From positions 3,198-67,197 of the forward strand of contig CAUWGA010000004.1 of the NCBI GenBank assembly GCA_963558245.1: a DNA stretch of 64,000 nt, given 5' to 3'. A program made the position numbers and the translations under genes. Positions 836 to 62,902 of this stretch are shown piece by piece. How positions within the stretch are numbered: position 1 is the first letter of the stretch; each line of letters begins with the position of its first letter. Source of the DNA: an uncultured Clostridia bacterium (GTDB taxonomy: Bacteria > Bacillota > Clostridia > TANB77 > CAG-508). Below the pieces are notes generated by a model, which did not search any database, was not told the origin of the DNA, and saw nothing but the letters and a program-made list of their open reading frames with translations.

Positions 836-876
836 GAGCAGGGGAAAATCTAGAGATTATATCAAAGGATTACCTA

Positions 877-6832: not shown

Positions 6833-6895
6833 TATAATCTCTCCTAATTATTAATACATTTGCAAAACAAATTATAACTTTTTTAAACAAAAAAT

Positions 6896-7177: not shown

Positions 7178-7304
7178 AAAACCTCCTTATCTTATATATT
7201 TTATTTGTTACAAGAAATATTTATAAAGTTATTAGTTTAGAAAAACAGAAATTTAATTATATGTAGTAACAAAAAATATATTAATATTATAATATTTTAG
7301 ACTG

Positions 7305-8183: not shown

Positions 8184-8194
8184 TATAATCTCCT

Positions 8195-8533
8195 TTAAGA
8201 AACTAATGATTTAATAGCTTCTAAAATTAAGTTAATTGCTAATATAAAAGCATAAGAAAATAACGAACCCTTTATGATTTTTTTACCCATGCGTATTTTT
8301 TCTTCATCACCAAAACTAAACTTTTTCATAAATACACCACTACCAACAGCAACGGCAGCAGCAGGTGTTGCGATTTTTAAAAGCCAACTTTCAATACTTT
8401 CAAAAGCAGAATTAATTTTATTTACTATTGCAGGTTCACCCCAGCCATAACTTATATTTCCAAAACAAAGTAATGATATAGAGATAAAAATAATAACAAA
8501 AGTCATTGAAAATAATTTTTTTTTATATTTCAT
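8195..8533 (-). CDS. Small secreted two-TM protein, VirB2/TrbC pilin-like candidate
   Basis: Signal peptide MKYKKKLFSMTFVIIFISISLLCFG, then ATPAAAVAVGSGVFM and a C-terminal hydrophobic helix, the typical layout of T4SS pilins. Confidence 0.4.
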   Translation of the reverse strand: MKYKKKLFSMTFVIIFISISLLCFGNISYGWGEPAIVNKINSAFESIESWLLKIATPAAAVAVGSGVFMKKFSFGDEEKIRMGKKIIKGSLFSYAFILAINLILEAIKSLVS

Positions 8534-8572
8534 GTAATTCAGTCCTTTTATATATTTAGATTTTAGGAAAAT

Positions 8573-10307: not shown

Positions 10308-10653
10308 AATACTTTTTTTGTTAAATAAAATAGATAAAACCTCCTTTAAAAGTATTTTTTCTTGATTTGTAATTTTGAACCTTGTTTATTATGAAATAAA
10401 ACGACATCAAAAAATGTATATAATGAATATAAAGTGATAAAAAGATAAATAATAAACGTGATAAAATAAAAATCAATTAATTTAGAAATAAAATCACCGC
10501 CTTACGATTTTGGATATAATATAACATTTTTTTTATTTTGTCTATACTTTTTTGAAAAAATATGATAAAATAATTATCACAAAAATATTTAAAACAGGTA
10601 ATTAGGCAAGTTTTAGAGATTTTAAAATAAATTTAAATAGGAGGGAAATAATA

Positions 10654-10839
10654 ATGGAATTTAATAAAGATACAAAAATAGGAGAAATATTAGAAAAAGC
10701 TCCAGAAAAAGCAGATATATTATTAGAAGTAGGAATGCATTGTTTAGGATGCCCAGCATCACAAATGGAAACATTAGAAGAAGCTTGTGCGGTACATGGA
10801 ATAGATGTTGAAGAAGTAGTAAAAATGTTAAATAAATAA
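10654..10839 (+). CDS. DUF1858-type small redox-disulfide protein
   Basis: MEFNKDTKIGEILEKAPEKADILLEVGMHCLGCPAS...; RBS aggaggg upstream. Confidence 0.8.
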   Translation: MEFNKDTKIGEILEKAPEKADILLEVGMHCLGCPASQMETLEEACAVHGIDVEEVVKMLNK

Positions 10840-10936
10840 TAAAAATATAAAATTTTCAATTTTTTTTCACAAATGTATTGACATTTGTGAAAAAATGTTG
10901 TAATATAAGAAAGCATTGTGGTGAACACCAAAATTT

Positions 10937-11012
10937 GGGCCATTAGCTCAGGTGGTAGAGCACTTGACTTTTAATCAAGTTGTCCCGCGTTCGAGTCGCG
11001 GATAGCTCACCA
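10937..11012 (+). tRNA. tRNA-Lys (anticodon UUU)
   Basis: Cloverleaf folded by hand: D arm gctc/gagc, anticodon loop cTTTTaa, T arm ccgcg-ttcgagt-cgcgg, encoded CCA. The acceptor stem has one mismatch and one wobble pair. Confidence 0.85.
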
Positions 11013-11058
11013 AAAGAACTAAATAATTTGAAATAATTATTTAGTTCTTTAAATATAA

Positions 11059-11133
11059 GGCCCGTTGGTCAAGCGGTTAAGACACCGCCCTTTCACGGCG
11101 GAGACATGGGTTCGATTCCCGTACGGGTCACCA
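11059..11133 (+). tRNA. tRNA-Glu (anticodon UUC)
   Basis: Anticodon stem-loop ccgcc-ctTTCac-ggcgg, T loop ttcgatt, encoded CCA. Confidence 0.9.
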
Positions 11134-11149
11134 CAATTTAATTTAATAT

Positions 11150-11226
11150 GCCACTTTAGCTCAGCTGGCCAGAGCATCGCACTTGTAATGCGAGGGTCCC
11201 CAGTTCGAATCTGGGAAGTGGCTCCA
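11150..11226 (+). tRNA. tRNA-Thr (anticodon UGU)
   Basis: Anticodon stem-loop tcgca-ctTGTaa-tgcga, T arm cccag-ttcgaat-ctggg, encoded CCA. Confidence 0.9.
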
Positions 11227-13513: not shown

Positions 13514-13987
13514 TTAATTATTACCATCAGTTAATCTTCTTTTATAATTTCCAGAAATTAATTTAGGTAAATAAGTAATAATTTTATAAACTGCTAAACG
13601 AACTTTTTTGCTCCATAAATAAGAACGTCTTAATTTTCTTGCAGAACCTAAAGAAACAGGTTCATCTTCTAAAACAAGTAATTCGTTTTGAACTTTTTCT
13701 AATTGGAATACATAATTTTGACCATTATTGTTATCCCAAACATCATTATTATTCTTAAAACAGAAGTTAAAAGTATCTCCTTCTAACAATTGAATTTCAG
13801 CTTGAAATCCTAAATCAGTTTTTTCCATTTTTACATCTGTTACATTATCCCAGTTTTGTCCAAAACCATAATGAATAGATACTTCCTCAGAAGCATCTTG
13901 ATATAATTGACCTAAATATGATATTTTTACCTTACTATTTTCTACTAATTTATCTGTGTTGAAGAATATATTTTTTGTTAACTCCAT
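13514..13987 (-). CDS. CBM25/CBM53-like starch-binding-module protein with a basic C-terminal tail
   Basis: VKISYLGQLY...VSIHYGFGQNWDNVTDVKM...FNFCFKNNNDVWDNNNGQNYVF matches the CBM25-type pattern. Confidence 0.5.
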   Translation of the reverse strand: MELTKNIFFNTDKLVENSKVKISYLGQLYQDASEEVSIHYGFGQNWDNVTDVKMEKTDLGFQAEIQLLEGDTFNFCFKNNNDVWDNNNGQNYVFQLEKVQNELLVLEDEPVSLGSARKLRRSYLWSKKVRLAVYKIITYLPKLISGNYKRRLTDGNN

Positions 13988-22524: not shown

Positions 22525-24708
22525 ATGGATAAAATAATAACAACAATAGCACAAGAATTAGGTGTTAAGAACTCACAAGTTGAAAACACAATTAAACTAA
22601 TTGATGAAGGAAATACTATACCTTTTATAGCAAGATATAGAAAAGAAGTAACAGGAGGACTAAGTGACGAAACTTTAAGAGAGTTAGGAGAAAGATTAGC
22701 ATATTTAAGAAATTTAGAACAACGAAAAGAAGAAGTGATAAAATCAATTGATGAACAAGGAAAATTAACAGACGAAATCCTTCAAGCCGTAGCTATAGCT
22801 AAAACATTAGCAGAAGTAGAAGATATTTATAGACCTTACAAGCAAAAGAAAAAAACAAGAGCAACAGTAGCAAAAGCTAAAGGATTAGAACCTCTTGCAA
22901 ATATCATTTTAGAGCAAAAAGAAACAACAGATATAAATGACATTGCAAAAGAATATATAAATATAGAAAAGCTTTCAGAAGAAGATAAAAAGAACAAAGA
23001 TAAAGTTGTTGCAACAATAGAAGATGCAATACAAGGAGCATTAGACATAATAGCAGAAATTATTTCAGATAATGCAAAATATAGAAAAGAAATAAAAAAG
23101 CTTTTATTTAGAGAAGGCTCAATTGTAACGAAAGCATCTAATGTCGAAGAAAAATCAAATTATGAAATGTATTATGAATATCAAGAAGCATTAAAATACA
23201 TACCAAGTCATAGAATATTAGCTATTAATCGTGGAGAAAAAGAAGGATTTTTAAAAGTATCTTTAGAAGAACCAGAAGAAAAAATATTAAAATACATAGA
23301 AAGAGATATAATAAAAGGTGAAACACAATTTACTAAAATGCTACAAGACACAATTTTAGACAGTTTCAAAAGATTAATAGCACCATCAATTGATAGAGAA
23401 ATTCGTTCAGATTTAACAGAAAAAGCAGAGGAGAAAGCAATAAAAGTATTTGGTAAAAATTCAAAGCAATTATTGTTAGGAGCTCCAATAAAAGGTAAAA
23501 CTGTTATGGGATTTGACCCAGCATATAGAACAGGTTGCAAAATTGCTGTTATAGATGAAACAGGAAAAGTTTTAGACTACACAACAGTATATCCAACAGA
23601 ACCACAAAACGATGTAGAAGGAGCTAAAAAAGAACTTCTAAAATTAATAGAAAAGGATAAAATAGATATGATAGCAATAGGTAACGGAACAGCATCAAGA
23701 GAATCTGAAATGTTTGTAGCAGACATGATAAAAGAAGCATCCAGACCAGTTCATTATGTAATAGTAAGTGAAGCAGGTGCATCAGTATATTCGGCATCTA
23801 AACTTGCAACAGAAGAATATCCAGATATAAATGTATCAATAAGAGGAGCTATATCTATAGCAAGACGTTTACAAGACCCTCTTGCGGAACTTGTGAAAAT
23901 AGATCCTAAAGCTATTGGAGTAGGGCAATATCAACATGATGTTAATCAAAAAAGATTATCAGAAAGCCTAACTGCAGTTGTAGAAGATAGTGTTAACAAA
24001 GTAGGTGTAGATGTAAATACAGCAACACCATCATTACTTGCATATGTATCAGGAATAAATAAAACAATAGCAAAAAACATTGTAAAATATAGAGATGAAA
24101 ATGGAAAATTAAAAAACAGAAAACAATTATTAAAAGTACCTAAATTAGGAAAAGTAGCCTTTGAACAATGTGCAGGGTTCTTACGTATATTAGATGGAGA
24201 TAATCCATTAGAAATAACAGCCGTACACCCTGAAAGTTATGAAGCAACAGAAAAGTTACTTGAAACAATAGCATTTGATAAAAAAGATTTAAAAGACAAG
24301 GAGAAATTAGAAGAACTAAGAACAAAATTAAAATCAATAAATATAGAAGAAATGTCAAAACAATTAAATATCGGAGAAATGACATTATCAGATATAATAG
24401 AAGAACTTTCAAAACCAGGTAGAGACCCACGTGAAGACATGCCAAAACCTATTTTAAGAAATGACGTTTTAAAATTAGAAGATTTAAAAGAAGGTATGGT
24501 ATTAACTGGTACAGTAAGGAATGTAATTGATTTTGGAGCATTTATTGATATTGGAGTAAAACATGACGGACTTGTGCATATATCAGAAATGAGTGATAAA
24601 TTTATCAAAAATCCATCAGACTTAGTTTCAGTTGGAGATGTTGTTAAAGTAAAAGTAATTAAAATTGATAAAGAAAGACAAAAAGTAGGACTTTCTATGA
24701 AAGTATAA
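22525..24708 (+). CDS. tex: Tex-like transcription accessory protein (YqgF, HhH and S1 domains)
   Basis: NTIPFIARYRKEVTGGL, YqgF-like region GFDPAYRTGCKIAVID, C-terminal S1 domain GMVLTGTVRNVIDFGAFIDIGVKHDGLVHIS. Confidence 0.93.
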   Translation: MDKIITTIAQELGVKNSQVENTIKLIDEGNTIPFIARYRKEVTGGLSDETLRELGERLAYLRNLEQRKEEVIKSIDEQGKLTDEILQAVAIAKTLAEVEDIYRPYKQKKKTRATVAKAKGLEPLANIILEQKETTDINDIAKEYINIEKLSEEDKKNKDKVVATIEDAIQGALDIIAEIISDNAKYRKEIKKLLFREGSIVTKASNVEEKSNYEMYYEYQEALKYIPSHRILAINRGEKEGFLKVSLEEPEEKILKYIERDIIKGETQFTKMLQDTILDSFKRLIAPSIDREIRSDLTEKAEEKAIKVFGKNSKQLLLGAPIKGKTVMGFDPAYRTGCKIAVIDETGKVLDYTTVYPTEPQNDVEGAKKELLKLIEKDKIDMIAIGNGTASRESEMFVADMIKEASRPVHYVIVSEAGASVYSASKLATEEYPDINVSIRGAISIARRLQDPLAELVKIDPKAIGVGQYQHDVNQKRLSESLTAVVEDSVNKVGVDVNTATPSLLAYVSGINKTIAKNIVKYRDENGKLKNRKQLLKVPKLGKVAFEQCAGFLRILDGDNPLEITAVHPESYEATEKLLETIAFDKKDLKDKEKLEELRTKLKSINIEEMSKQLNIGEMTLSDIIEELSKPGRDPREDMPKPILRNDVLKLEDLKEGMVLTGTVRNVIDFGAFIDIGVKHDGLVHISEMSDKFIKNPSDLVSVGDVVKVKVIKIDKERQKVGLSMKV

Positions 24709-25095: not shown

Positions 25096-26163
25096 CTATT
25101 CAGAAGGATAATTTTCCATAACTTCATCAATTTCATCTCGATGATTTCTTAAAATATCAAGAAAAACATTAGCAATTTCTGGATCAAATTGAGTTCCCTT
25201 ACATCTTTCAAACTCATCTATTATAACATCTAAAGGCAAAGAATTACGATAAGCTCTCTTAGAAGCCATAGCATCAAAGCTATCTGCAACAGCTGCAATT
25301 CTTGCTAGATAAGGAATATCATTTCCAGCTAATCTACCAGGGTAACCAGTACCATCAAATTTTTCATGATGATGTTCAACTATAGGTAAAATATTTTGAA
25401 AAATTTTTGCATGTGATAATATGTGAACACCGATATTTGGATGTTGCTTAATTTGAGAATATTCATCATCATCAAGTCTACCATTTTTTTGTAAAATAGC
25501 ATCAGGAACACCAATTTTACCAATATCATGAAATAAACCACCAACACGTAAAGTATCTAAATCTGTTTGAGGTAATCCTAAATGTTTACCAAGCAAAACA
25601 GAATATTCTGAAACACGATCAGAATGACCTCTAGTATAAGTATCTTTTGCTTCAACAGTATATCTTAAAGTTTGAATACTTTCTAAATAAGCTTGTTCTA
25701 ATTTTTCGTAAGTATCAGATAATTCAGAGTTTATATGTTTTATTTGATTCATTTGGGCAATTGATTTTATTCCAGATTCGATTAACAACAATAATTGGTC
25801 AAATTTATCGCTTTTTTCACAATAACCTTGTATATCTAACCTTCTAATTGTATCTAATGGAGGAGCTAAATCTTTATGTCCAGTAAGTAATAAAATATAT
25901 AAGTCTTTATTAAATTTTCTAATTTCTTCAACAACTTGGTCACCATGAATAGGAGTCATGATAAAGTCAAGTATCATTAAATCAAAGTGTTCACATTTAA
26001 CCTTTTCAATTGCCTCAAGAGGATCAGTTACGCCAACAAATTGATAGCCAGATCTTTTCAAAAATATTGATAAAGAATCAACAATTCCTTCCTCATCATC
26101 TACTGCAATAATTTTATAATTCGTATTTTCTGAATTTTGAACATTTTGTAATCCTTTTCTCAT
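25096..26163 (-). CDS. Response regulator with HD-GYP output domain (predicted c-di-GMP phosphodiesterase)
   Basis: REC domain (IIAVDDEEG...DLMILDFIMTP). HD-GYP motifs: GHSDRV, LFHDIGKIGVPDAIL, HHEKFDGTGYPGRL. Confidence 0.9.
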   Translation of the reverse strand: MRKGLQNVQNSENTNYKIIAVDDEEGIVDSLSIFLKRSGYQFVGVTDPLEAIEKVKCEHFDLMILDFIMTPIHGDQVVEEIRKFNKDLYILLLTGHKDLAPPLDTIRRLDIQGYCEKSDKFDQLLLLIESGIKSIAQMNQIKHINSELSDTYEKLEQAYLESIQTLRYTVEAKDTYTRGHSDRVSEYSVLLGKHLGLPQTDLDTLRVGGLFHDIGKIGVPDAILQKNGRLDDDEYSQIKQHPNIGVHILSHAKIFQNILPIVEHHHEKFDGTGYPGRLAGNDIPYLARIAAVADSFDAMASKRAYRNSLPLDVIIDEFERCKGTQFDPEIANVFLDILRNHRDEIDEVMENYPSE

Positions 26164-26243
26164 ATGATATACCTCGTAATCTCTAAACTTTTCTACATTA
26201 TATGCATAAAATTGCTAAAAATCAAGAGTTTTTAAGCAAAAAA

Positions 26244-26287
26244 AATTTAACTAGATTTACTGTAGTTGTAAATAATCTAGTTAAATT
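26244..26287 (-). terminator. Hairpin terminator between the histidine kinase and the response regulator
   Basis: aatttaactagatt / aatctagttaaatt 14-bp arms, followed by a T run on the minus strand. Confidence 0.6.
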
Positions 26288-26295
26288 TTTGGTAA

Positions 26296-28335
26296 TTATA
26301 GTGGTAATATTATAGTAAAAGTTGTACCATTTCCTTCTTGAGATTCAAAAGTTATATTTCCACCAAAATGAGCTTTTATTGTTGAATATGACATATATAA
26401 TCCAAGACCTGTACCGTTTTTTCCTTTAGTTGTAATCATTTCTTTAAATAACTTATCTTGTACTTTTGGTGGTAAACCACAGCCATAGTCTTTTATTGAT
26501 ATATGTAATTGATTACCAACTTGTTCTATAATCAAATCAATAGTTTGATTTGTTTTTCCTTCATAAGATTGAATAGCATTTGAAATCATATTATTAATAA
26601 CTTGTACAAGACTATTTATATCACCTTGAATTCTAGTATGTTCATCTGTTTTCACAGAAATATTTAAATATACAATTGCATTTTTGAGTTCATGTTTCAT
26701 AAGAATATTAACTCTTTTTATTAATTCCTCAATATCAAAAGTTACATTTTGAGTTTCTGATAATGTAACAGCTTGACCTTTAACGGCGGTAATAATATCA
26801 GACATATATTCAGTATAATCTCTGATTTTTGCTATCCATGAATCCATATCTTTGGCTATATCATGATGGTCTTGACTATTTACTTCTGGATCATCAATAG
26901 AAGAATCATATTCTTTTATTAAATCAGACAAACCTTCGGCTGCACCAGAAATAGACATTATTGGAGTTTTTAGGTTATGAGCAATACCGCCAATTAATTG
27001 ACCTAAAGAAGCAAGTCGTTCTTGTTCCATAAGTATGGATTGATTATTTCTGATTTGATTAATATTATGTTTAGTAAATATTTGTGTTTGGTTAAATGCA
27101 AGAGATAGGTCAGCAAGCTCATCTTCAGAGGTAACTATTAATTTTTTATTTAAATTAATAGAATTTTCATTTGAAGAAGCAATTTCCTTTAATCTTGAAG
27201 CAACGGTTTTTATCTCTGTAGAAATAGAATGTGCAACATAGATTAAAATACTAAGTATTATTGCAAATAATAAGAAATCACAAACTAAAATCATTTTTAA
27301 AAATTTAGGTTGACGGGTATCATATCTAACACCTGCATAACAATAATCTCCATTATCCAAGTTACATTTTAATGCAATTCCTTCTGTATCTAGACAGAAA
27401 TAATCATAAGTTCTGCCACCTTCTGCAACGGAATTATTTAACACATATTTTATGAAAAACGGTTCTAATACACCATTATCAGAAGCTTGATAACTACCAT
27501 CTTTATTTATTATAAAATATTGATGACTATCATCTAATAAAGTTATTTCAGATAATTTCTTTTCTACATCTTCTGTAGAATTAAATGATTGATTAAATGA
27601 ATCTGAAAGCATTGTAAAATATGATTTGTAATAAACATCCCCAGTCTCTTTAGCTGCTTGGACATATCCAACTAAAGATAAAAATATTAAAGAAACCATT
27701 ACTAAAGGGATAAATTGTAGAAATAGTTTAACAGAAAGTGACTTTATTTTAGATCTCTTTAATGATGACTTTTGTTCTAACTTTTGCATAATTTCAGGAT
27801 ATTCTTCATTTAGTAAAGATATAATGTAAGCAAATTCATTTTTAGAAAACACAAAGCTAGTAACAGAAGATAATGTAAAGAAAGATATGTAAGTTAAACA
27901 AATCTTCAGTATTGTTAGAGGATATGCCTTTATTATGATAAATGTAATAGGTAAAAAAATTAAAGGTAAGATAATCTCTAAAAAATATAAAAGATATGGA
28001 GTATCATAACAAAATCTTCTTATTTTGTATAATATATTTACTACTGTTTCCTTAGAGTTGCTTGGCTTATCCAGCTTAACTAAGAGCTTATGAATACGAT
28101 AAGCTCTTATAAATAAAATAATTAAGCTACATGCAACAATAAGTGAAATTAAAAGTATATATTGTTGAGTATATGTTATTCCATCAAATTCAAGTTGAAA
28201 TGTATTATCTATACTATTAGGTGGATAATTTAAAATTGTGGGTAAAAATCTATAAAGGCACATAGCGATTAATGCTGGAATGCCCAAATATAAAGTTATA
28301 ATCTTTAAAATACAAGCATTAAATCTTTTTATCAT
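26296..28335 (-). CDS. Membrane sensor histidine kinase
   Basis: Multi-pass N-terminus, an extracytoplasmic segment of about 150 aa and a second TM region. H-box LIGGIAHNLKTPIMSI, N-box INNMISNAIQ, G-box GTGLGLYMS. The ATG lies 3 nt after the NRPS stop, and the RBS aaggag is inside the NRPS 3' end. Confidence 0.85.
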   Translation of the reverse strand: MIKRFNACILKIITLYLGIPALIAMCLYRFLPTILNYPPNSIDNTFQLEFDGITYTQQYILLISLIVACSLIILFIRAYRIHKLLVKLDKPSNSKETVVNILYKIRRFCYDTPYLLYFLEIILPLIFLPITFIIIKAYPLTILKICLTYISFFTLSSVTSFVFSKNEFAYIISLLNEEYPEIMQKLEQKSSLKRSKIKSLSVKLFLQFIPLVMVSLIFLSLVGYVQAAKETGDVYYKSYFTMLSDSFNQSFNSTEDVEKKLSEITLLDDSHQYFIINKDGSYQASDNGVLEPFFIKYVLNNSVAEGGRTYDYFCLDTEGIALKCNLDNGDYCYAGVRYDTRQPKFLKMILVCDFLLFAIILSILIYVAHSISTEIKTVASRLKEIASSNENSINLNKKLIVTSEDELADLSLAFNQTQIFTKHNINQIRNNQSILMEQERLASLGQLIGGIAHNLKTPIMSISGAAEGLSDLIKEYDSSIDDPEVNSQDHHDIAKDMDSWIAKIRDYTEYMSDIITAVKGQAVTLSETQNVTFDIEELIKRVNILMKHELKNAIVYLNISVKTDEHTRIQGDINSLVQVINNMISNAIQSYEGKTNQTIDLIIEQVGNQLHISIKDYGCGLPPKVQDKLFKEMITTKGKNGTGLGLYMSYSTIKAHFGGNITFESQEGNGTTFTIILPL

Positions 28336-28338
28336 TTG

Positions 28339-31300
28339 TTAATCTCCTTTACTTAAAAATTTATCAAAGAATTTATTTATATATTTTTTATTAATTTCTG
28401 GCCAAGATAAATCAGCATTTTTCATATAATTTATAGTAAATTTATTTTTCATTTCTATATTAGAGTTGTATTTAGAACTATTGCTAGTTAAATCATTTAT
28501 AATACCTAAAATATCTTCTTTATCTTTTATATATTTGTAGAATTCTTCATCAGAAATTTCTTCTAATTTTTGATTATCAGGCTTTAATTCATTAATCAAA
28601 TCAATAAATTTAAATGAATTATTATGATAAATATGAAAAACTTTAGAGTAGCTACTTTCTATTAAAATCAATTTTGATATAATTTCAGCACAATAATCAA
28701 CAGGACTCAAATCAATTTTTAAACTAGAAAAAGATTTAGCGATTTTATCCAATTTAGCAATTGTCAAAACTCTATTTAAAAATGCATTTTTTTCATCATT
28801 TTCTTGGAATTTACCATCTGAATATCTTGCTGTAATATTACCAAGACGATATATAGAAGCCCTTAAATTAGAATTTTCCATAGCTTCCCAGATGTTATAT
28901 TCTGCTTCAAATTTAGTTTTTATATAAATATTAGATTCATAATTTTGCCCCACATATAAGCAATGTTCATCAAATACAACAGGATTATTAGCAGAAGGAA
29001 GTGAAGCAGAAACTGAAGTAGTTGATATGTGATTCATATAAATTGAATAATTTGTACAAAAATCAATTATATTATTAGTTCCAATAACATTAACTAAGTT
29101 GAAAACATCTTTACTACCATAATGATCAACAATTGCTGCTGAATGTATAACAAGATCAATTTTATTTCCTAAATTATCATAGTCTTCATAAGAAAGTCCA
29201 AATTGTTGTTTAGAAATATCAGCAACTATAACAAAAATACGGTTATCAATATATTTTAAAAAGTCTTTTCCGAAGTAAAATTCTAATTTTTTTAGTAATC
29301 TATCTTTAGAAGCTATACTATTTTTGTTACGTATAATACAATACACATTACTGTTAGTGTGTTTAATCAATTCAGCTAAAATATGAATACCAAGATATCC
29401 TGTTGCTCCTGTTAAAAGAATGTTTTTGGCAGAAATTTTCTTGTTTGAAAAATTTTCTTTAAAATTAAAGTAAATATTATCTTTTAATGTTCTTTTATAT
29501 AAGTTTGAATGTTTAGGATAAGAAAAATTATCCGACAATGCTCTTATTGTTTTTAATTCATAGATATCTTGAATATTTACGATAAAGTTTTTTTCTAATA
29601 GCTCTATAGTAATTCTCATTAATGTCAAAGAATCTGCACCTAATTCTATAATATTATCATCAATACCAATATTTTTTATATTTAGGTTTTTTTCTAATAT
29701 TTCTTGGAAAACTTTTTCGAATTCATTTCTTGGGGCCTCATATTTTTTCTTTTTTTCTATTTTAACATCTAAACTCAAAAGTTTTTTACGATCTATTTTT
29801 CCATTATTAGTTAAAGGTAATTTATCTAAAAATACAAAATAATTTGGAACCATATAAGTTGGAACAAGCTTAGAAATATATGCTTTTAAATCAGAAGTAG
29901 AAAGCTTTTGATCCATAACTAAATATGCTACTAAATAATTATCAAAGTCGCTAGTCTTTTTAGGTAAAACTACACATTTTTTTATATTTGGATGTCTTAA
30001 AAGTTTAGTTTCAATTTCACCAGTTTCAACACGAAATCCTCTAATTTTTACTTGATTATCAATTCTACCAAGATAATGTAAATCTCCATCTGGAGTTAGA
30101 TAAGCATCATCAGCAGAACGGTATAAAATCTCATTTGAATTATATGGATTTATGACAAATCTATCTTTATTAAGCTCAGGACGATTTAGATATCCTTTAC
30201 ATACTCCAAGACCGCTTACACACATTTCTCCTTCAACTCCATAAGGAAGAATATGTAAATTTTGATCCATAACATAAACTTTTAGTGTAGGAATAGGTTT
30301 TCCAATATTGGAATTAGGAGAAAGTAAATCATCTTCCAATAATTCTTTATATGTAACATGTACAGTTGTCTCAGTAATTCCATACATATTGATAATTCTT
30401 GTAAATGGATATTTATCTTTCCAAGGTTTTACTAAATTTGGTTTTAAAGCCTCTCCACCAAAAATAATATAACGTACAGATAAATCAGAATGTTCATTTA
30501 ACAATTCTCTATCTAATAAATTATAAAAATATGTAGGTGTTTGGTTTAAAACAGTGACTTTTTCATCTCGTAATAATTGTAAAAATTTGTTAGCATCCTT
30601 AGCAGTTGTTTCAGGAACTAAAATAAGTTTACTTCCATATAATAAACAAGCATATAATTCCCAAACAGAAAAGTCAAAAGCAACTGAATGAAACATTGTC
30701 CATACATCATTTTCATTAAAATCAAATTGAAATTTATCATTTTTTATTAGACGCACAATATTTCTATGTTTTAACATAACTCCTTTTGGCGTTCCAGTAG
30801 AACCAGAAGTATAAATAATATAAATTAAATCATCTGGATTATTTATACATTCTAAATTATCAGAGTTATTATTATAAATTTCATTTTTTGAATTAATATC
30901 TAATAAATACATATCTATTGGAATTTCTAAATCTTCCTTATGAGCATTATTGGTTAAAAACAATTTAGCAGAACTATCTTTTAACATAAAAGATACACGT
31001 TCTTGTGGATAAGATAAATCTATAGGCAAATAACATCCACCAGCTTTTAAAATTCCTAAAATACCAACTATCATTTCAAGAGATTTATTTAAACGCAATC
31101 CAATAACATCATTTGATTTTATACCTAAGTTTCTTAAAAAATGAGCAACTTGATTAGATTTTTCATTTAGTTCTCTATAAGTCATAGAAGCATTTTTAAA
31201 CTTAATTGCAACATTTTCAGGTGTTGAAAGAGCCTGTTCTTCAAACAATTGAGATATTGTTTTGTTAGAAGGATAGTGACAGTCATTTTCTTTTGCTAAA

Positions 31301-32634
31301 TTTAATATTTCTTGTAATTCATCCATAGTTGCTATAGAAATTTCTTTTATGTATAAACCTGGATTAATTAATACTTGTTCTATCATATACAATATTCTTT
31401 GATGAATTCTAATAATTTCATCTTCTGAATATTTTGAAATTTTATAATCATATGCAATATCAATATTACCAGAATTATTTAAATCAAAGAAATGAATATC
31501 CATATCATCTGCAATAGACCCATTAAAGCTCCAGTCACAAGAAGAATTAATTCCCTCATCAGTGGTTGTTTTAGTAATCTGATAAGAAAGCAAAATTTGA
31601 TACAAATTAGGTGTAGAAGGGTCATTTTTTCTTAAATCTTCTAAAATATATTGATAAGAATATTTTTGATGTCTATATATAGAAGTAAAATCCAAAGCAA
31701 TATTATTTACAAAACTTAAGAAAGATGTCTTATCTGTAGGCTTAATTCTTACAGGAACAGTGTTTATAAACATTCCCATTGTGCCTTTTTGAACACTTGA
31801 TGTTCTGTTTAATATAGGAGTTCCTAAAATAAAATCATCAGATTTGTTAATTCGTCCAATATAAATAGAATATATAGCCATTAAAAAGTTATACATTGAA
31901 ACATTATAAATTTTACAAAAATCATTAATTTCTTGAACTAAGCTAGAGTTCATTTCAAATACTTTTCTTTTTCCTTTTAAAGCAGTGGTAGCATCAATAG
32001 CTGGAGTATCAACAAAACTAGGTATGCTAATGCAGTCAGGTCGATTAGCTAAATATTCACTCCAAAAAGATTTATCTTTTTCAAATTTAGAACTATTAAT
32101 ATATTTTTCTTCCGCACTAATATAATCTATATATGAATTTGAATTTTTTTGATTAGGAATCTTATTATGGACGACAACATATTTGTTAACTATATTCTTA
32201 GCAATTAAACCCAAAGTCCAAGAGTCAGAAATAAGATGGTGGATATTTACTACTACGCCACCAGTCATATCAGGATATCTAAAAATTTTTATATCGAATA
32301 AAGAAGAATTTAAAATATCAAATATACGTGATATCATTGTATCTTCTAATTTTTTTAAATCATCTTTTGTATTAATATCAACAATTTCAACATCATAATC
32401 AACCTTATCCAAGAAAGATTGATAAACTGAACCATCTTTAAGTGTAAACTTTGTATGAAAATTATCATTTTCATTAATCATTAGTTGTAATGCTTGTTGT
32501 AAATCCTTAAAGTCAAGAGGCTCATATAAATGAATTGTCCCACAGATATTATTTATGTTTGAACCATTAAAAAATAGTTCTGTATTCCAAATACTTTTTT
32601 GAGCATTTGTTAATTCATAAACATTACTTTCCAT
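28339..32634 (-). CDS. Single-module nonribosomal peptide synthetase, C-A-T-R (terminal thioester reductase)
   Basis: C: HHLISDSW. A: LIYIIYTSGSTGTPKGV, NMYGITETT, GRIDNQVKIRGFRVETGEIE, NGKIDRKKL. T: LGADSLTLMR. R: LLTGATGYLGIHIL and YIKTKFEAE. Confidence 0.92.
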   Translation of the reverse strand: MESNVYELTNAQKSIWNTELFFNGSNINNICGTIHLYEPLDFKDLQQALQLMINENDNFHTKFTLKDGSVYQSFLDKVDYDVEIVDINTKDDLKKLEDTMISRIFDILNSSLFDIKIFRYPDMTGGVVVNIHHLISDSWTLGLIAKNIVNKYVVVHNKIPNQKNSNSYIDYISAEEKYINSSKFEKDKSFWSEYLANRPDCISIPSFVDTPAIDATTALKGKRKVFEMNSSLVQEINDFCKIYNVSMYNFLMAIYSIYIGRINKSDDFILGTPILNRTSSVQKGTMGMFINTVPVRIKPTDKTSFLSFVNNIALDFTSIYRHQKYSYQYILEDLRKNDPSTPNLYQILLSYQITKTTTDEGINSSCDWSFNGSIADDMDIHFFDLNNSGNIDIAYDYKISKYSEDEIIRIHQRILYMIEQVLINPGLYIKEISIATMDELQEILNLAKENDCHYPSNKTISQLFEEQALSTPENVAIKFKNASMTYRELNEKSNQVAHFLRNLGIKSNDVIGLRLNKSLEMIVGILGILKAGGCYLPIDLSYPQERVSFMLKDSSAKLFLTNNAHKEDLEIPIDMYLLDINSKNEIYNNNSDNLECINNPDDLIYIIYTSGSTGTPKGVMLKHRNIVRLIKNDKFQFDFNENDVWTMFHSVAFDFSVWELYACLLYGSKLILVPETTAKDANKFLQLLRDEKVTVLNQTPTYFYNLLDRELLNEHSDLSVRYIIFGGEALKPNLVKPWKDKYPFTRIINMYGITETTVHVTYKELLEDDLLSPNSNIGKPIPTLKVYVMDQNLHILPYGVEGEMCVSGLGVCKGYLNRPELNKDRFVINPYNSNEILYRSADDAYLTPDGDLHYLGRIDNQVKIRGFRVETGEIETKLLRHPNIKKCVVLPKKTSDFDNYLVAYLVMDQKLSTSDLKAYISKLVPTYMVPNYFVFLDKLPLTNNGKIDRKKLLSLDVKIEKKKKYEAPRNEFEKVFQEILEKNLNIKNIGIDDNIIELGADSLTLMRITIELLEKNFIVNIQDIYELKTIRALSDNFSYPKHSNLYKRTLKDNIYFNFKENFSNKKISAKNILLTGATGYLGIHILAELIKHTNSNVYCIIRNKNSIASKDRLLKKLEFYFGKDFLKYIDNRIFVIVADISKQQFGLSYEDYDNLGNKIDLVIHSAAIVDHYGSKDVFNLVNVIGTNNIIDFCTNYSIYMNHISTTSVSASLPSANNPVVFDEHCLYVGQNYESNIYIKTKFEAEYNIWEAMENSNLRASIYRLGNITARYSDGKFQENDEKNAFLNRVLTIAKLDKIAKSFSSLKIDLSPVDYCAEIISKLILIESSYSKVFHIYHNNSFKFIDLINELKPDNQKLEEISDEEFYKYIKDKEDILGIINDLTSNSSKYNSNIEMKNKFTINYMKNADLSWPEINKKYINKFFDKFLSKGD

Positions 32635-32837
32635 AAAACCTCACCCTTAAAAAAATTTATAAGACGATTATATATATAAAAATTTAAATTTTCAACATTT
32701 TTTTCTCAAAATGTAAAAAAATTGAAAATAAAACATAGAAAATTAGCTATTGTAAAAAATAAAAAAATGATATAGAATATGCGTAATAAAAAAGGACTTG
32801 CTATTAAATAGCTAAAATCCTTGAAAGGAGAAAGAAT

Positions 32838-34568
32838 ATGAGAGGAACAAAAAATAGAAATGTGTACGAACCACATAAAGTAGAAAGCTTTAGAGATTTA
32901 TTAAGTACAGTGGATGAAAAATATCCAAATAATGTAGCATTTAAATATAAAAAAGATGCTGAAACAAAAGAACCTGAATATGTAGAAAAAACATATCATC
33001 AATACGTACAAGATGTGAAAGCCGTATCTACAAGTTTATTAGAACTAGGATATAAAGGAAAGAAAATAGTAGTTATAGGAAATAACAGATATGAGTGGTG
33101 TACAACATACATGGCAGTAACAACTGGAGGTATGATAATAGTTCCTATGGATAAAGCACTACCAGACAATGAAATAGAAAATCTAATAAAAAGAAGTGGT
33201 GCTGAAGTTATAGTATTTGATAAAAAATACATGAATATTATGTTAAAAATAAAAGAGAACAAAGAAATAAATGCAAATACTCTAATTTGTATGGATAACG
33301 AAGAACAAGTAGGAGTGGAAAAATATGAAGATTTATTAAAAAATGGATATGAGTTACTAGAAAAAGGTAGTACAAAATATGATGATGTGAATGTAAATCC
33401 AGAAGAAATGGCAATATTATTATTTACATCAGGAACAACAAATGCACCTAAAGGTGTAAAATTATCACAAAGTAATATATGTGCAAACATATCAACATTC
33501 ACTTCATGGGTAAAAATATATCCAACAGATACACTATTATCATTTTTACCAATACATCATACATTTGAATGTACAATAACATTTTTATACGGAACATATA
33601 GTGGAGCAACAATAGCATTTTGTGATGGTCTAAAACATATACAAAAAAATATGAAAGAATATGAAGTATCAATATTAGTAGCAGTACCATTAGTATTAGA
33701 AACGATGTATAAAAAAATTCAAAAAGGTATAAAAGACCAAGGAAAAGAAAAATTAATAAATAAAGTAACAAAAGTGTCAAATGCATTATTAAAATGTCAT
33801 ATAGATCTAAGAAAAGTATTTTTTAAACAAATATTAGATAATTTTGGAGGAAAACTAAGAGTAGTTTTATATGGAGCAGCTCCAATGAATAAAGATACAA
33901 TAATAGGGTTTAATAATATAGGTGTTGAATTAGTACAAGGATATGGACTAACAGAAACATCACCAGTAATATCAGCAGAAACAGACAAAGAAAAAAGACC
34001 TGGTTCAGTAGGATTAGTATTTGACAATTTAGAAGTAAAAATTAATGAACCAAACGAAGAAGGAATAGGAGAAATTTTCGTAAAAGGTCCAAGTGTAATG
34101 TCTGGATATTATGAAAATGAAGAAGCAACAAAAGAAGCATTTGAAGATGAATGGTTCAAAACAGGAGACTATGGATATTTAGACAAAGACGAATTCTTAT
34201 TTGTAACAGGAAGAAAAAAAGACATAATAGTATTAAAAAATGGTAAAAATGTATATCCACAAGAAATTGAATTTTTAATAAATAAAATACATTATATAAA
34301 AGAAAGTTTAGTATATCAAAGAGAGCAAAGCAAAACTGACACAATGTTATGTGCGAAAATAGTTTATGATAAAGACTTAATAGAAAAAGAACTAGGAAAG
34401 AAAACAGAAAAAGAATATCAAGAAGAAATATGGAAAGAAATAAAAGAAATAAACAAAACCTTACCTGTATTTAAACACATAAAGAAAATAGAAATAACAA
34501 CAGAAGAATTTGCTAAAACAACAACCCAAAAAGTAAAAAGATATAAAGAACTAGAAAAAATAAAATAA
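32838..34568 (+). CDS. Long-chain fatty-acid--CoA ligase (AMP-forming)
   Basis: LLFTSGTTNAPKGVKLSQ, GYGLTETSP, TGDYGYLDKDEFLFVTGRKKD. Divergently transcribed from the NRPS. Confidence 0.85.
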   Translation: MRGTKNRNVYEPHKVESFRDLLSTVDEKYPNNVAFKYKKDAETKEPEYVEKTYHQYVQDVKAVSTSLLELGYKGKKIVVIGNNRYEWCTTYMAVTTGGMIIVPMDKALPDNEIENLIKRSGAEVIVFDKKYMNIMLKIKENKEINANTLICMDNEEQVGVEKYEDLLKNGYELLEKGSTKYDDVNVNPEEMAILLFTSGTTNAPKGVKLSQSNICANISTFTSWVKIYPTDTLLSFLPIHHTFECTITFLYGTYSGATIAFCDGLKHIQKNMKEYEVSILVAVPLVLETMYKKIQKGIKDQGKEKLINKVTKVSNALLKCHIDLRKVFFKQILDNFGGKLRVVLYGAAPMNKDTIIGFNNIGVELVQGYGLTETSPVISAETDKEKRPGSVGLVFDNLEVKINEPNEEGIGEIFVKGPSVMSGYYENEEATKEAFEDEWFKTGDYGYLDKDEFLFVTGRKKDIIVLKNGKNVYPQEIEFLINKIHYIKESLVYQREQSKTDTMLCAKIVYDKDLIEKELGKKTEKEYQEEIWKEIKEINKTLPVFKHIKKIEITTEEFAKTTTQKVKRYKELEKIK

Positions 34569-34638: not shown

Positions 34639-35790
34639 GTGAGTTTTTTGAGAAGAAGAAAGCAAAAGAATACACTTACTAAAATATTAATAATTACTAT
34701 AGTAACAGTTAGCATAGGAATTTTATCATTTTTTCTATATATTACATATCAAAATATAGAAATAAATAGTCAAGATTATACTGTAACTAAGACACAATCC
34801 ACAGTTAATGCACAAATTGTGGAAAATGTAGAAGAAGATAGCAAAAATGTGGCAGATATAATTGAAGATACAACTAGAAAGGTTGTTGGAATATCAAAAC
34901 TAAAAAATGCGGGAAGTAGTATATTTTCTAAAAGTCAAGAAAGTGAACTAGGATTAGGGACAGGTTTTATTGTTACTGAAAATGGGTATATAGTTAGTAA
35001 TGCACATGTTACAGGGGAAAAGTATAGCAAGTGCTATGTAACATTGGAAAATGGTATGACTTATGATGGTAAAGTAGAGTGGAGTGATACTAATTTGGAT
35101 TTATCTATTGTAAAAATTGAAGCGAAAAATTTACCATATGTAAATTTAGGAGATTCTAGCAAAATACGAGTAGGAGAAACAGTATATGCAATAGGTAATC
35201 CAATAGGATATGAATTTAGGAGGACTGTAACTTCAGGAATTATTAGTGCAAAAAATAGAACTATAAAAATAGATGAAAAAGATAAATCGTCATATATGAC
35301 AGACTTAATTCAGACAGATGCAACTATAAATCCAGGAAATAGTGGAGGACCACTTATATATCCAAATGGAGAGATTATTGGAATAAATACCGTTAAAATT
35401 TCTTCAGCAGAAGGGATAGGCTTTGCGATACCAATAAATATCATAAAACATATAATTGATAGTTTTATAAATACAGGAATATTTGAAGAAGCTACAATTG
35501 GAATCTATGCATATGACAAAGAAGTTATCCCATATTTAAGAGGGAATTCGATAACAAGTTCAAATTTTGAAAAAGGAATATATGTAGCACAAATTACTAA
35601 AAATGGTCCAGCCAATAACACTGAATTAAAAGAAGCAGATATAATAACGACTATTGATAACAAAGAATTAAATACAATGAATGATTTACGAGAATATATT
35701 TATAGCAAAAAGCCAGGAGATGAAGTTACTTTAAAAATAGTAAGAGGAAAAATTAATAAAGAAATAAAAATAACTTTAGGCAAAAAGTAA
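34639..35790 (+). CDS. htrA: HtrA/DegP-family serine protease with N-terminal TM anchor and C-terminal PDZ domain
   Basis: GTGFIVTENGYIVSNAHV, DLSIVKI, TDATINPGNSGGPL; PDZ-like ...GIYVAQITKNGPA...GDEVTLKIVRG. Confidence 0.85.
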   Translation: MSFLRRRKQKNTLTKILIITIVTVSIGILSFFLYITYQNIEINSQDYTVTKTQSTVNAQIVENVEEDSKNVADIIEDTTRKVVGISKLKNAGSSIFSKSQESELGLGTGFIVTENGYIVSNAHVTGEKYSKCYVTLENGMTYDGKVEWSDTNLDLSIVKIEAKNLPYVNLGDSSKIRVGETVYAIGNPIGYEFRRTVTSGIISAKNRTIKIDEKDKSSYMTDLIQTDATINPGNSGGPLIYPNGEIIGINTVKISSAEGIGFAIPINIIKHIIDSFINTGIFEEATIGIYAYDKEVIPYLRGNSITSSNFEKGIYVAQITKNGPANNTELKEADIITTIDNKELNTMNDLREYIYSKKPGDEVTLKIVRGKINKEIKITLGKK

Positions 35791-42927: not shown

Positions 42928-45900
42928 ATGAAGGAAAAAATGAAACTAAAAAAATTATGCATCATTATGACAATATTGTGCACAATTTTATTTACTGCAA
43001 ATTCAGTGTTTGCAGCAAATGTACAAACAGAATTAACAACAAACAAAAACGAGGTTCAGGCGAAAAATGAAGAAGAAATAACACTTACCCTAGAACTAAA
43101 AGAGTTTAAAGAAATTGAAGATGGACTGTATGCCTATAAAGGACAAATTCAATACGATAAAAACGTTTTTTATGAAATAGAGGAAAAAAATTTTACAACT
43201 CAAAATTCTTGGGAAAGTCTTAAATATAATAAAGAAAATAATGAATTCGTTATTATAAAAAAATCAGGAGTAGTAAGTGAAGAAGAATTTTTACAAATAA
43301 AATTAAAAGTAAAAAATAATGGAATAGCAGGAAAATCAAACATTGTAATTACAAACCAAACAACGTCAGAGGGAAAAACAGATATAGAAATAGGGAACGT
43401 AAATGTAGAGATTACAGTTATTCAAGAAGAAAATAATAATCCAGGAACAGGTGACAACGAAGGTAATAACAATAGTGGAAACAATAATCCTGATGCAGGA
43501 GATAACGAAAATAACAATAATGACAATTCAGGTAATGGTAATGAGGGAAGTAATGAAGGAAACTCTAACGGAGAAAATAATAATCAAGGTTTAGGAAAGC
43601 CTTCAACAGAATTACCAAAAACAGGATTAGGAAATTATCAAACACTTATTGTTATAGGAATAGAGATATTACTAATAATTGCAGTAATTTCATTTATAAA
43701 ATATAAAAATATAAACAAAAAGATAAAAAATAAAAAAATAATAGGAATGCTTTTAGCAGTTATACTTACAGCACAAATAGCAGGAACTACATATGCGGTA
43801 GTGCTAAGCATCACACAAAAAGGAGAATTAAATGGAGACGGACTAATTAATTATGCTGATGTAGAATTAGCTGAAAAACATTTAATTGGACTTGAAGAAT
43901 TACCAGCTGATAAATTAGAAAATGCAGATTTAAATGAGGACAAAAAAATAACAGTAACAGATTTAACACTTTTAATAAAAAAGATAGAACATAAAAGAGA
44001 ATATGAAGTAAAAATAGAAAATGCTAGCACAGAAAATTATTATCCAAATAAGAATCAAGAAATAGAAATATCTTTTGTAGCTGATATAAACTATGATGAT
44101 GTATCAATTAAGAAAGTAATAATAAATGATAATGAATATGAAGTACAAAACACAATTGGAAATGAATATAAAGTAAAACTAAATGTAGGAAATATAGCAG
44201 AGAAAAAAGATTTTAAATTTTTAAAAGCAATACTTTCAAATAACGAAGAAGTAAAAACAAACTACAACTTTTCTGTAAGCGTACTAAAAGATGTACCATT
44301 TATTGATGAAAAAACGTATAAATTAGAAGAAACATTTGAAGGAAAAGCAAATGTTAGCTTCGATTTAATTGATACAGAAAATAGCATTACTTCTGCACAA
44401 TTTACAGCTTATGAAAAAGTAGGTAATATACCTGTAGTAGAAACACCTATAAAATCAGGAAATAATACACAAGAAATAGAAGTAGAAGATGGAAAAACAT
44501 ATGTAGTTGAAATAAACGTAGATTATAATTTAGCACCAGAACAATTAGAAGGAAAACCACATCAAGGAGAAAATATTATCTACACAAAAGAATTTACAGT
44601 AAACTTAGATTATAAATTTAAAATATCTAATATAAAAACACTAAAAAATGATGTAGCCAATACAACATTTACAAAAGGAGAACAAATTCAAATTTCTTTT
44701 GATAGTACAAATGCAGCATTTGAAACCACAAAAAATAATACATTTAAACCAGCTGTTGTAACAATTAATGGAAAAGAATATCAGATAACAGAAAAAAATA
44801 ATCATTATGTTGCAACAATAGATGGAATAGAAAGCTTAGGAAATCAACTAATTACAATAGAAAAAGTAAAACTTGGAAACGGAAAAGAATTTAGTTTAGA
44901 TAAAAATAACAGTGTTCAAGTTAGAATAGAAGAAAAGAAACCAGAAATAACTGATTTTGAAGCACAAGAAAACGTAGCAGACAAAAATATTAACATCAAA
45001 TTTAATATATTAGATAAAGAACAGACAATAGAAAGTGCAAAAGTTGTACTTTATGATAGCAAAAAGAATGTAATTGAAAGCAAAGATTTAAATGTGGAAG
45101 AAATCAGAAATGGAACAATAGAAACAACATTAAAGACAAAAAACACAACAACATATATAATACAAGTAGTTGCAAATTACAGAGTAACAGATACAGAAGT
45201 GGCAAAAAACAAAGTATTATTAGAAAAAGAAGTACCAGCAATTATATATGCCAATATCAAGCAAGCAGAAGTAAATAAAACAGAATTAGAAAAAAATGAT
45301 TCTGTAAATATTACATATGAAATTGAAACAAATAGTGAGCAAACTATAGAAAAAATACGTGTAAATAGTGTAAATTATATAGCAACAAAATTAACTAATG
45401 GAAAATATAAAATTACAATTCAAACTGGAAATGTACCACAATTACTAAATCTTGAAACAACAAAAATTATTTTCAAAGACGGAACAGAAACAGAAGTAAC
45501 AAATACATTAAAAGTAAATGTACTAAAAGATGTACCAACAATTAGTGATATAAGACAAGAAGACAGTGTGGGAAAACATGAAGTAACATTACATTTTACA
45601 ATAAATGATGCAGATAAAAGTTATATCAGAGGAAAAGTACAATTAGTTAAAGGCGGCAGTGTAGTAGAAGAAAAAGACATTATAAAAGAAGAAAAAGAAA
45701 TAGGAACAGTTACTTTTGACCATGTAGAAGAAGGCGTTTCTTACACAGCAAAAGTTTTAGTTACATATAACAGATTTACAGAAACAGAAGAATATATTCA
45801 AAAAGACCAATTACTAGAAGAAGTGCCAGTTATATTAATACATGATTATAAATTACAAATAAGTGATTTAAAAACAGCAAATACAGATAAGGAAACAAAA

Positions 45901-62890: not shown

Positions 62891-62902
62891 GAGGTAAAAA
62901 CA

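Follow-up and report, generated by a model that had tools for sequence, protein, structure and literature searches.

A hypervariable synthetase and sensor-kinase cassette in uncultured gut Clostridia, proposed as a pherotype-like signalling locus with c-di-GMP hydrolysis as its output

This article concerns a locus in a 64,000-nt stretch of contig CAUWGA010000004.1 from an uncultured Clostridia bacterium (hereafter the window; all coordinates are positions in that stretch). In it a single-module non-ribosomal peptide synthetase (NRPS) of 1431 amino acids (aa) at 28339-32634 on the minus strand is followed by a histidine kinase (26296-28335, minus strand) and a response regulator with a receiver and an HD-GYP domain (REC-HD-GYP; 25096-26163, minus strand; Pfam Response_reg with HD_5/HD). 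The order on the contig is tex, regulator, kinase, NRPS, ligase, htrA. The outermost two genes, recognised by Pfam as encoding Tex (22525-24708, plus strand) and an HtrA serine protease (34639-35790, plus strand), lie outside the module and form the right and left flanks of the slot that it occupies. Our principal finding, from the comparison of related loci, is that the NRPS and kinase residues 1 to about 420 together constitute a hypervariable cassette within this fixed slot between HtrA and Tex, which is common to a clade of uncultured gut Clostridia of very high A+T content; HtrA flanks nearly all of the chromosomal loci. In our opinion it is fairly probable that the NRPS product, an N-acyl-threonine aldehyde or alcohol, is sensed by the co-translated kinase, which would switch a cyclic di-GMP (c-di-GMP) phosphodiesterase, and that the locus is a pherotype-like signalling module.

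The linkage of NRPS, kinase and regulator is obligate. A metagenome scan with an alignment of the kinase gave 568 confirmed loci, the best-scoring 80 of which were assessed. In every one of the 69 loci (69/69) that extend 700 nt or more upstream of the kinase, the domain encoded next to it is a reductase, and of the 60 loci that extend 4.5 kb or more, 59 have condensation, adenylation and reductase domains together. Loci that were inspected one by one agree with this. The HD-GYP regulator lies downstream of the kinase in 57 of the 61 loci with at least 1.7 kb downstream, and it is within the locus in 60/61 if three inversions are counted, in which it adjoins the 5' end of the NRPS gene instead. 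The NRPS/kinase junctions are short or overlapping (-35 to +15 nt in 13 of the 15 loci measured), and every two-component sensor homolog looked up, down to 29% identity, directly follows an NRPS with condensation, adenylation, thiolation and reductase domains (C-A-T-R). Nine metagenome-assembled genomes from uncultured gut Clostridia share the gene order AspRS-M23-HtrA-(ligase)-NRPS-kinase-regulator-Tex-ABCF throughout. In loci whose NRPS is about 55% identical, the order HtrA, NRPS-kinase-regulator, Tex is kept within outer flanks that are different. One copy, L019, has its NRPS, kinase and REC protein among genes for a relaxase, a DNA methylase, HU, a type I restriction-modification system and SieB, with neither HtrA nor Tex; it is on a mobile element without the usual flanks, so the module travels as a whole. 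An earlier reading of the DNA letters alone (the sequence-only reading) had made its proposal of a functional circuit depend on the trio being conserved together in other genomes, and this is what the metagenome loci and the mobile copy show. Clade-wide synteny as the full explanation of the linkage was considered and rejected, given the mobile copy, the differing outer flanks and the replacement of cassettes between flanks that are 98-99% identical, which is described below.

Identity to the window across loci is 79-97% for Tex, 68-92% for the regulator, 71-94% for the kinase core, 28-94% for the sensor and 35-88% for the NRPS. The distances between NRPSs and those between sensors are correlated with r = 0.98, and a partial Mantel test controlling for Tex still gives r = 0.96 (p = 2e-4), while the same test for NRPS and regulator gives r = 0.07, which is not significant. 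When identity between types is followed along the kinase in a sliding window, it stays at 10-45% as far as residue ~420 and then rises abruptly to 75-95% at the DHp domain. At the DNA level the same border is seen in six cross-type comparisons: homology is lost from htrA on and resumes at 27035-27134 of the window, which corresponds to kinase codons ~400-433. Grouped at 55% identity, the sensors of 98 loci form 23 clusters, each with a single specificity code of the adenylation domain; at least 12 such codes occur. The sequence-only reading had proposed a metabolite-sensing or autoregulatory circuit, and this co-diversification of synthetase and sensor half gives strong comparative support to metabolite sensing. 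A further case is provided by L026 and L027, where a two-module NRPS occupies the same slot and the kinase carries a HisKA_7TM-PAS sensor that is not homologous to the sensor of the window; in L026 the catalytic half of the kinase is nevertheless 65% and the regulator 76% identical to those of the window.

Cassette type also does not follow relatedness. The tex gene of L081 has 87.5% nucleotide identity to that of the window, which is as near as in L007 and L029, loci of the same type as the window, yet L081 carries another type of cassette; it is the closest relative of the window to do so. The clearest example of replacement is the pair L078 and L107, obtained from separate samples. On one side a flank of 3.9 kb that takes in htrA is 99.0% identical between them, and on the other the 7.7 kb that begin with tex are 97.7% identical; between these flanks lie non-homologous cassettes: L078 has a ligase, an NRPS with the code DVAYLGGICK and a sensor of type 2, and L107 has an NRPS with the code DLTKIGEVGK and a sensor of type 10. 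From kinase codon ~385-397 on the two loci are homologous again, with 90.9% identity across the kinase core and regulator, an intermediate value as would be expected beside an old polymorphism. L079 and L103 are a second swapped pair, in which the replaced tract takes in the regulator and reaches into tex. The alternative alleles in near-identical backgrounds are those of a related lineage, that of L078 and L107, and not of the window's own species.

The same facts can be read as linkage without ligand recognition. The kinase would then sense an unrelated environmental or host cue, the sensor and the NRPS would be carried by the same recombination tracts, and the shared operon would reflect regulatory convenience or a common recombination hot spot. 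Physical adjacency indeed makes hitch-hiking expected, the tract of L079/L103 runs through the regulator into tex, so that tract ends are not always at the boundary of sensor and core, mobile-element insertions and inversions do occur in the slot, and a distant GGDEF fusion has the sensor fold without an NRPS. On the contrary, every sampled kinase of the subfamily, down to 26% sensor identity and including the mobile copy, keeps a C-A-T-R NRPS immediately upstream, and the junctions stay short or overlapping. The boundary is at the same domain junction in six independent comparisons, and a second NRPS module coincides with a wholly different class of sensor. Alleles that are only ~28% identical must moreover be ancient, and so long a pairing is hard to explain without selection. 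We regard this explanation as unlikely.

If signalling is nevertheless the function, the chemistry has to be sought in the NRPS, for which the C-A-T-R order given by the sequence-only reading agrees with Pfam (Condensation, AMP-binding, AMP-binding_C, PP-binding, NAD_binding_4). On the minus strand the C domain occupies aa 1-445 (about 31300-32634), the A domain aa 455-960 (about 29755-31272; AMP-binding, 4.5e-95), the T domain aa 965-1045 (PP-binding) and the thioester reductase domain R aa 1060-1431 (about 28342-29457; NAD_binding_4, 1.2e-45). The motifs are intact in all of them. The C domain has HHLISD at aa ~132, and HHxxxD is kept in 16 aligned orthologs, with SHxxxD in L019, where the second His is kept. 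The T domain has LGADSL, with the DSL core kept in all aligned orthologs, and the R domain has TGATGYLG and YIKTK (TGxxGxxG and YxxxK); the model TIGR01746 scores 186 bits on the R domain, under its 213-bit cut-off. Many NRPS homologs have 1425-1440 aa, and there are two-module cousins of ~2485 aa. In comparison with the two-module relative in L026 the C domain of the window is 48% identical to C1 and 23% to C2, and its A domain is 59% identical to A1, so that the window enzyme corresponds to C1-A1-T1 plus R of its two-module relatives.

The code of the A domain, DFWNIGMVHK, is listed for Thr (PMC12283262). Elsewhere in the cassette series DAFWLGGTFK reads Val, DLTKIGEVGK reads the Asp/Asn group, and DILQMGMIWK is one residue off a Gly code; DAESIGTVCK and DSELTAEVCK may be Lys- and His-like. 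A literature check of DAESIGSVCK, DAESIGTVCK, DSELTAEVCK, DILQMGMIWK, DVAYLGGICK and DAIFGGLMFK gave no match. From these features we would propose that the NRPS activates L-threonine, that the C domain N-acylates the tethered threonine with an acyl thioester, the donor coming from the ligase where there is one and otherwise from primary metabolism, and that the R domain releases N-acyl-threoninal reductively, which may be further reduced to the alcohol. Since there is a single module, the window enzyme cannot make a dipeptide or a pyrazinone.

This last point separates the enzyme from its closest characterised relatives, the C-A-T-C-A-T-R synthetases of dipeptide aldehydes from gut Clostridia. 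These belong to a homologous lineage (47-52% identity), the R domain matches their terminal R, and reductive release is common to both; two-module gut NRPSs are, in addition, found in the same slot with a kinase and an HD-GYP regulator. The sequence-only reading had cited single-module gut enzymes as precedent. The published members of the gut family, as they are cited in PMC8210680 and PMC12327764 (Guo et al. 2017; ruminopeptin, Schneider & Balskus 2018), are two-module dipeptide aldehyde synthetases, reported there as sources of protease-inhibiting peptide aldehydes directed at host proteases. It could accordingly be argued that the product here is an outward-acting protease inhibitor, that the diversity of amino acids follows differing target proteases, and that the kinase senses the cell's own inhibitor or the envelope stress resulting from it, adjusting physiology or protecting the cell instead of serving communication. 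A range of P1-like residues (Thr, Asn-like, Val, Gly-like, perhaps Lys- and His-like) would suit the targeting of proteases, and the chromosomal slot adjoins htrA, itself the gene of a serine protease. However, htrA is no more than a conserved flanking gene, which the mobile copy lacks, and proteases would bind one acylated residue only weakly beside di- or tripeptide aldehydes. Recognition of the product by the kinase would still be needed for the sensor to co-diversify, thus the difference from signalling would be one of purpose only. We consider a self-monitored effector quite unlikely.

The fourth gene that the sequence-only reading placed in the locus, a divergent fatty-acyl-CoA-ligase-like enzyme of 576 aa (32838-34568, plus strand; Pfam AMP-binding and AMP-binding_C_3), is indeed there in the window and divergent from the NRPS (the ORFs of all four genes are where that reading put them), but it is not a fixed member. 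It occurs in about a third of the metagenome loci, with several cassette types and always between HtrA and NRPS, and it is present in one allele of the L078/L107 pair and absent from the other. We considered it as an integral member of the module and rejected this, as it is missing from L004, L005, L013-L018 and many others and varies between alleles. It is an optional accessory of the variable cassette, and probably supplies the acyl donor; its score with the NCBIfam long-chain-fatty-acid--CoA ligase model is 270 against a cut-off of 476 bits. The frequent company of such a ligase, the predicted amphiphilic product and the six transmembrane (TM) helices of the sensor would also fit a role in membrane-lipid homeostasis, in which the product would be a structural N-acyl amino alcohol lipid whose level in the bilayer is monitored by the kinase to tune c-di-GMP. 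Structural lipids are, however, not expected to swap alleles with at least 12 head-group specificities between near-identical genomes, and one NRPS turnover machine could hardly supply lipid in bulk; we find this explanation very improbable.

The slot itself varies in ways other than the exchange of cassettes, and it is structurally unstable. A gene for a DUF975 membrane protein is often found between regulator and tex (L013, L016, L020, L026, L027) and is absent from the window. In L027 (17341-21163) a TraG/T4SS-type segment with split DnaJ fragments is inserted between kinase and regulator, and L093, L096 and L102 show an inversion of the ligase-NRPS-kinase block with respect to the regulator and Tex. 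Some open reading frames (ORFs) are broken. The NRPS of L022 (5724-9996) is split into two overlapping ORFs, and in L002, L003 and L008 the ligase ORF is truncated, as is that of the regulator (225, 299 and 198 aa against 355); the NRPS and kinase ORFs of L008 are truncated as well. These breaks are either assembly frameshifts or signs of decaying cassettes, and there are no runs of N in the contigs.

Returning to signalling as the preferred reading, the next component is the kinase, for which Pfam finds HAMP (sub-threshold), HisKA and HATPase_c. Its conserved half, with the DHp and catalytic ATP-binding (CA) domains (26296-27075, minus strand), has an intact H-box (HNLKTP) and intact N and G boxes and ends with HATPase_c at aa 679, with no REC or HPt domain. 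The sensor half (aa 1-~420; 27076-28335, minus strand), as defined by hydropathy, sliding-window identity and an AF2 model, matches no Pfam family. Hydropathy gives six TM helices in all cassette types, with an extracytoplasmic alpha/beta domain of ~100 aa between TM5 and TM6 and HAMP thereafter, and the AF2 model (pLDDT 86.4, pTM 0.76) agrees in having four TM helices, TM5, a small alpha/beta domain, TM6 and HAMP. A near-invariant motif in loop 1, PxxxNYPPxS....FQ (P32, N36-Y-P-P39, S41, F46, Q47, with Q58), is common to the types. The only significant fold match is a weak one to a WalK-type TM-PAS/Cache-TM-HAMP integrative model (9a5d, E 2.5e-4, TMq 0.34), beside a weak match to a dCache ligand-binding domain, and the four-helix N-terminal bundle gave no fold match. 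In the mechanism that we propose, the lipophilic product would be the ligand of this polytopic sensor, which would be translated from the same mRNA as the synthetase.

A search with the sensor alone (aa 1-424) returned 124 proteins in 5.8 billion, and an exhaustive search found this sensor in 224 clusters at 50% identity. Distant relatives are fused to GGDEF, HD-GYP, hybrid kinases or LuxR-type output; the fold is joined directly to HD-GYP in P0204 (L023:1032-2897) and P0295, and to GGDEF in P0254 and P0294. The initial idea that the sensor is exclusive to NRPS loci was rejected on account of these fusions and of P0254, which has no NRPS. Given the variety of outputs and a GGDEF fusion without an NRPS, the sensor fold is a portable input module, often wired to c-di-GMP enzymes, with the NRPS-linked kinases as one subfamily. 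P0254 is placed between rpoC/CCA-adding enzyme genes and an ANTAR regulator.

The regulator has the REC acidic pair D22/D23, the phospho-acceptor D66, T94 and the K117 region, followed by the HD-GYP motifs HDIGK, HHEKFDGTGYP and RAYR, the KPG motif reading KNG. HD and HHExxDGxGYP are kept in 14 aligned orthologs, except for a D-to-N change in HHExxDG of L022, and the REC residues are kept in the same 14, with the N-terminal acidic pair absent from the truncated ORF of L003; the RxY[K/R] motif was followed in the window protein. By the family and motif definitions of bioRxiv 10.1101/2021.11.05.467447 this is a canonical RpfG-family protein. According to the same source HD-GYP is the predominant c-di-GMP hydrolase in clostridia, and the activity of the RpfG family depends on phosphorylation of REC. 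We infer that the kinase would phosphorylate the regulator and thus alter its c-di-GMP phosphodiesterase activity, which would lower c-di-GMP and change some c-di-GMP-controlled behaviour. Synthetase and sensor half, swapped jointly for alleles of other amino-acid specificity, would then give lineage-private pairs of signal and receptor, that is, pherotypes. In the mobile copy (L019:11952-14084) the regulator consists of REC and an uncharacterised C-terminal domain of ~180 aa, which is not HD-GYP, and a second REC protein, membrane-anchored, is found downstream of the first.

A number of points weigh against signalling and should be set out together. Adjacent genes that are inherited together co-vary without any functional interaction, hence linkage alone could give the Mantel result, and Mantel tests are liberal on data with a tree structure. 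One code per sensor cluster is partly a matter of shared ancestry. The 80 metagenome loci are the best of 568 and include near-duplicates from many samples. The GGDEF fusion P0254, with a sensor that is 31% identical, has no NRPS nearby. N-acylation, too, is drawn from the position of the C domain and from the two-module family. The domain is N-terminal (aa 3-443 in Pfam), with no carrier domain upstream within the protein, and the sequence-only reading had called it starter-type; by position and by orthology to C1 that description stands. In sequence, as compared with domains of solved structure, it is nearer to elongation domains: the best relatives are of the LCL type (TycC, 2jgp, 4.6e-28), and starter-C structures score lower (RzmA, 7c1h, 1.8e-12; CDA, 4jn3, 2.2e-8).

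Further such points come from the surroundings of the genes. The domain scan took in ORFs of at least 100 aa, that is 39 of the ~41 candidate genes of the window (62210-62890 and 62791-63468 were excluded), and among these there is no thioesterase, phosphopantetheinyl transferase, GGDEF, EAL or PilZ domain; thus the lack of a phosphopantetheinyl transferase and of a GGDEF gene holds for the scanned window genes. Nor is there room within the locus for a hidden MbtH gene, since the intergenic gaps are only 132-387 nt. The sequence-only reading had likewise seen no thioesterase, MbtH or phosphopantetheinyl transferase. The regulator has no DNA-binding domain, there is no c-di-GMP riboswitch or effector near the NRPS, and neither a c-di-GMP riboswitch nor any other known RNA element was found in the window or in six diverse loci. 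With no DNA-binding output and no riboswitch, the positive autoinduction loop that is typical of quorum sensing is not evident.

Co-translation of synthetase and kinase is suggested by their junction (28336-28352, minus strand), where the AAAGGAG ribosome-binding site lies in the 3' end of the NRPS gene and is followed by TAA, a CAA spacer and the kinase ATG at 28335. The sequence reads ...AAAGGAGATTAA CAA ATG, with GGAG within the NRPS frame and 3 nt between the NRPS TAA and the kinase ATG, just as the sequence-only reading had described it. The hairpin that it had recognised after the kinase is likewise present: an intrinsic terminator at 26238-26290 (minus strand) with a 20-bp AT-rich stem-loop and a run of eight U, a folding free energy (dG) of -15.7 kcal/mol and z = -6.5 against shuffles, none of which equalled it (0/200). 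A consensus scan finds promoter-like sites in front of the regulator (TTGATT-17-TATAAT, 26197-26225, minus strand, 10/12 match) and ~30 nt 5' of the NRPS ATG (TTGAAA-17-TATAAT, 32667-32695, minus strand, 11/12 match), the latter inside the 203-nt spacer that is common to the divergent NRPS and ligase genes. Such sites are weak evidence, because they are no commoner than in shuffles of this AT-rich DNA (77 observed against 92.6 expected). The NRPS and kinase would form a predicted operon, and the regulator, having a promoter-like site of its own and a terminator upstream, would be a separate transcription unit. On this point the sequence-only reading, which spoke of a direct coupling of the synthetase to a two-component system, would need correction.

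It is instructive to compare the locus with known systems. In agr (AgrBDCA), with its specificity groups in staphylococci, and in comQXPA, as here, a single hypervariable block takes in both signal synthesis (here the proposed synthase) and the N-terminal sensor part of the kinase; the catalytic part of the kinase and the regulator are conserved, and alternative alleles are found in near-identical genomic backgrounds. The comQXPA pherotype pattern in Bacillus matches the agr-type block polymorphism. In agr the hypervariable region spans agrB-agrD-agrC (PMC10482373). The differences are that the proposed signal here is non-ribosomal and not a ribosomal peptide, and that the output is HD-GYP, with no DNA-binding domain and no direct loop of transcriptional autoinduction visible.

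In the Rpf/DSF system of Xanthomonas the roles are divided among RpfB, an acyl-CoA ligase, RpfF, the signal synthase, and RpfC, the sensor kinase, and a lipid-like signal is linked to c-di-GMP. A ligase beside a synthase, a polytopic membrane kinase and an RpfG-family REC-HD-GYP regulator are features of both. However, the synthase here is an NRPS and no crotonase-fold RpfF is found among the scanned window genes; the kinase is a plain HAMP-DHp-CA protein as against the RpfC hybrid with REC and HPt; the host is Gram-positive, the ligase optional and the locus polymorphic. One may also compare CqsA/CqsS (CAI-1) and LqsA/LqsS, in which one enzyme makes a lipophilic signal and is encoded beside a six-TM kinase. 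Signals of this type are small, derived from amino acids and fatty acids, and bound in the membrane by the six-TM kinase encoded next to the synthase. These synthases are, in contrast, pyridoxal phosphate-dependent acyl-CoA transferases, the output passes through a phosphorelay to transcription and not to HD-GYP, and we know of no cassette polymorphism of this kind in either system.

Among reductase-terminated enzymes, MxcG (myxochelin) has the same C-A-T-R order and can be aligned over its full length (residues 5-1371 to model positions 4-1372), and AusA (aureusimine) shares the reductive A-T...R logic. The scores are, however, far under the equivalog cut-offs of NCBIfam (570 against 2300 bits for MxcG, 774 against 2500 bits for AusA), the substrates are others, and neither has a coupled kinase; indeed no NCBIfam model meets its cut-off for the proteins of the module. 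An NRPS-kinase-HD-GYP module was not found described in a literature search that left the cluster figures of Guo et al. 2017 and Schneider & Balskus 2018 outside its range, which is in line with the sequence-only reading, where the arrangement was not recognised. The novelty would therefore lie in a pherotype-type signalling locus with an NRPS as the proposed signal synthase and c-di-GMP hydrolysis as the output.

According to published reports, NRPS clusters that end in a reductase are common among Clostridia of the human gut, and until now the products have been read as inhibitors of host proteases. A sizeable branch of this family is wired to a dedicated kinase and a predicted c-di-GMP phosphodiesterase. 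If the product is the ligand, it would represent a new chemical class of Gram-positive signals, the first pherotype system encoded by an NRPS, and a way for a secreted metabolite to act directly on c-di-GMP in commensals that are strict anaerobes and uncultured. More speculatively, and we hold this to be somewhat less likely than not, the loci might make up an unrecognised family of non-ribosomal autoinducers in uncultured gut Clostridia, in which the head group (Thr, Asn-like, Val, Gly-like and at least eight others) sets the pherotype, a co-inherited, allele-specific six-TM/Cache-like sensor reads it, and degradation of c-di-GMP is the response. In that case at least part of the widespread gut 'peptide aldehyde' NRPS family would serve cell-cell signalling and kin discrimination and not the inhibition of host proteases. 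The predicted products are simple to synthesise, and the allele series (at least 12 codes, 23 sensor clusters) offers ready specificity controls. The sharp boundary of the cassette shows where chimeras could be built, which would provide synthetic biology with a natural toolkit of orthogonal small-molecule/kinase pairs.

The remainder of the window is housekeeping DNA of ~26% G+C, in which a few features may be mentioned. Just upstream of gyrA, Rfam matches to a group II intron catalytic domain (798-883, plus strand, 47.7 bits) and to the RT-14 RNA (1378-1527, plus strand, 97.1 bits, full length) border two short ORFs (243-755 and 877-1227) without a Pfam match. A run of ORFs on the minus strand (~4840-11223), with matches to an IstB-like ATPase, DnaB_2/DnaD-like proteins and TraG-D_C and several members without a family, ends at three tRNA genes (10937-11223) and may be an integrated mobile element. 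At 42928-52245 (plus strand) an ORF of 3105 aa has an N-terminal region of the M26 IgA1-protease type, a GLUG motif and a type I dockerin, and would appear to be a very large protease, secreted or at the cell surface, with an anchor of the cellulosome/amylosome type. A protein of 157 aa with CBM53/CBM25 starch-binding modules is encoded at 13514-13987 (minus strand), and, taken with the dockerin protein, may point to an amylosome-like way of life based on the degradation of starch.

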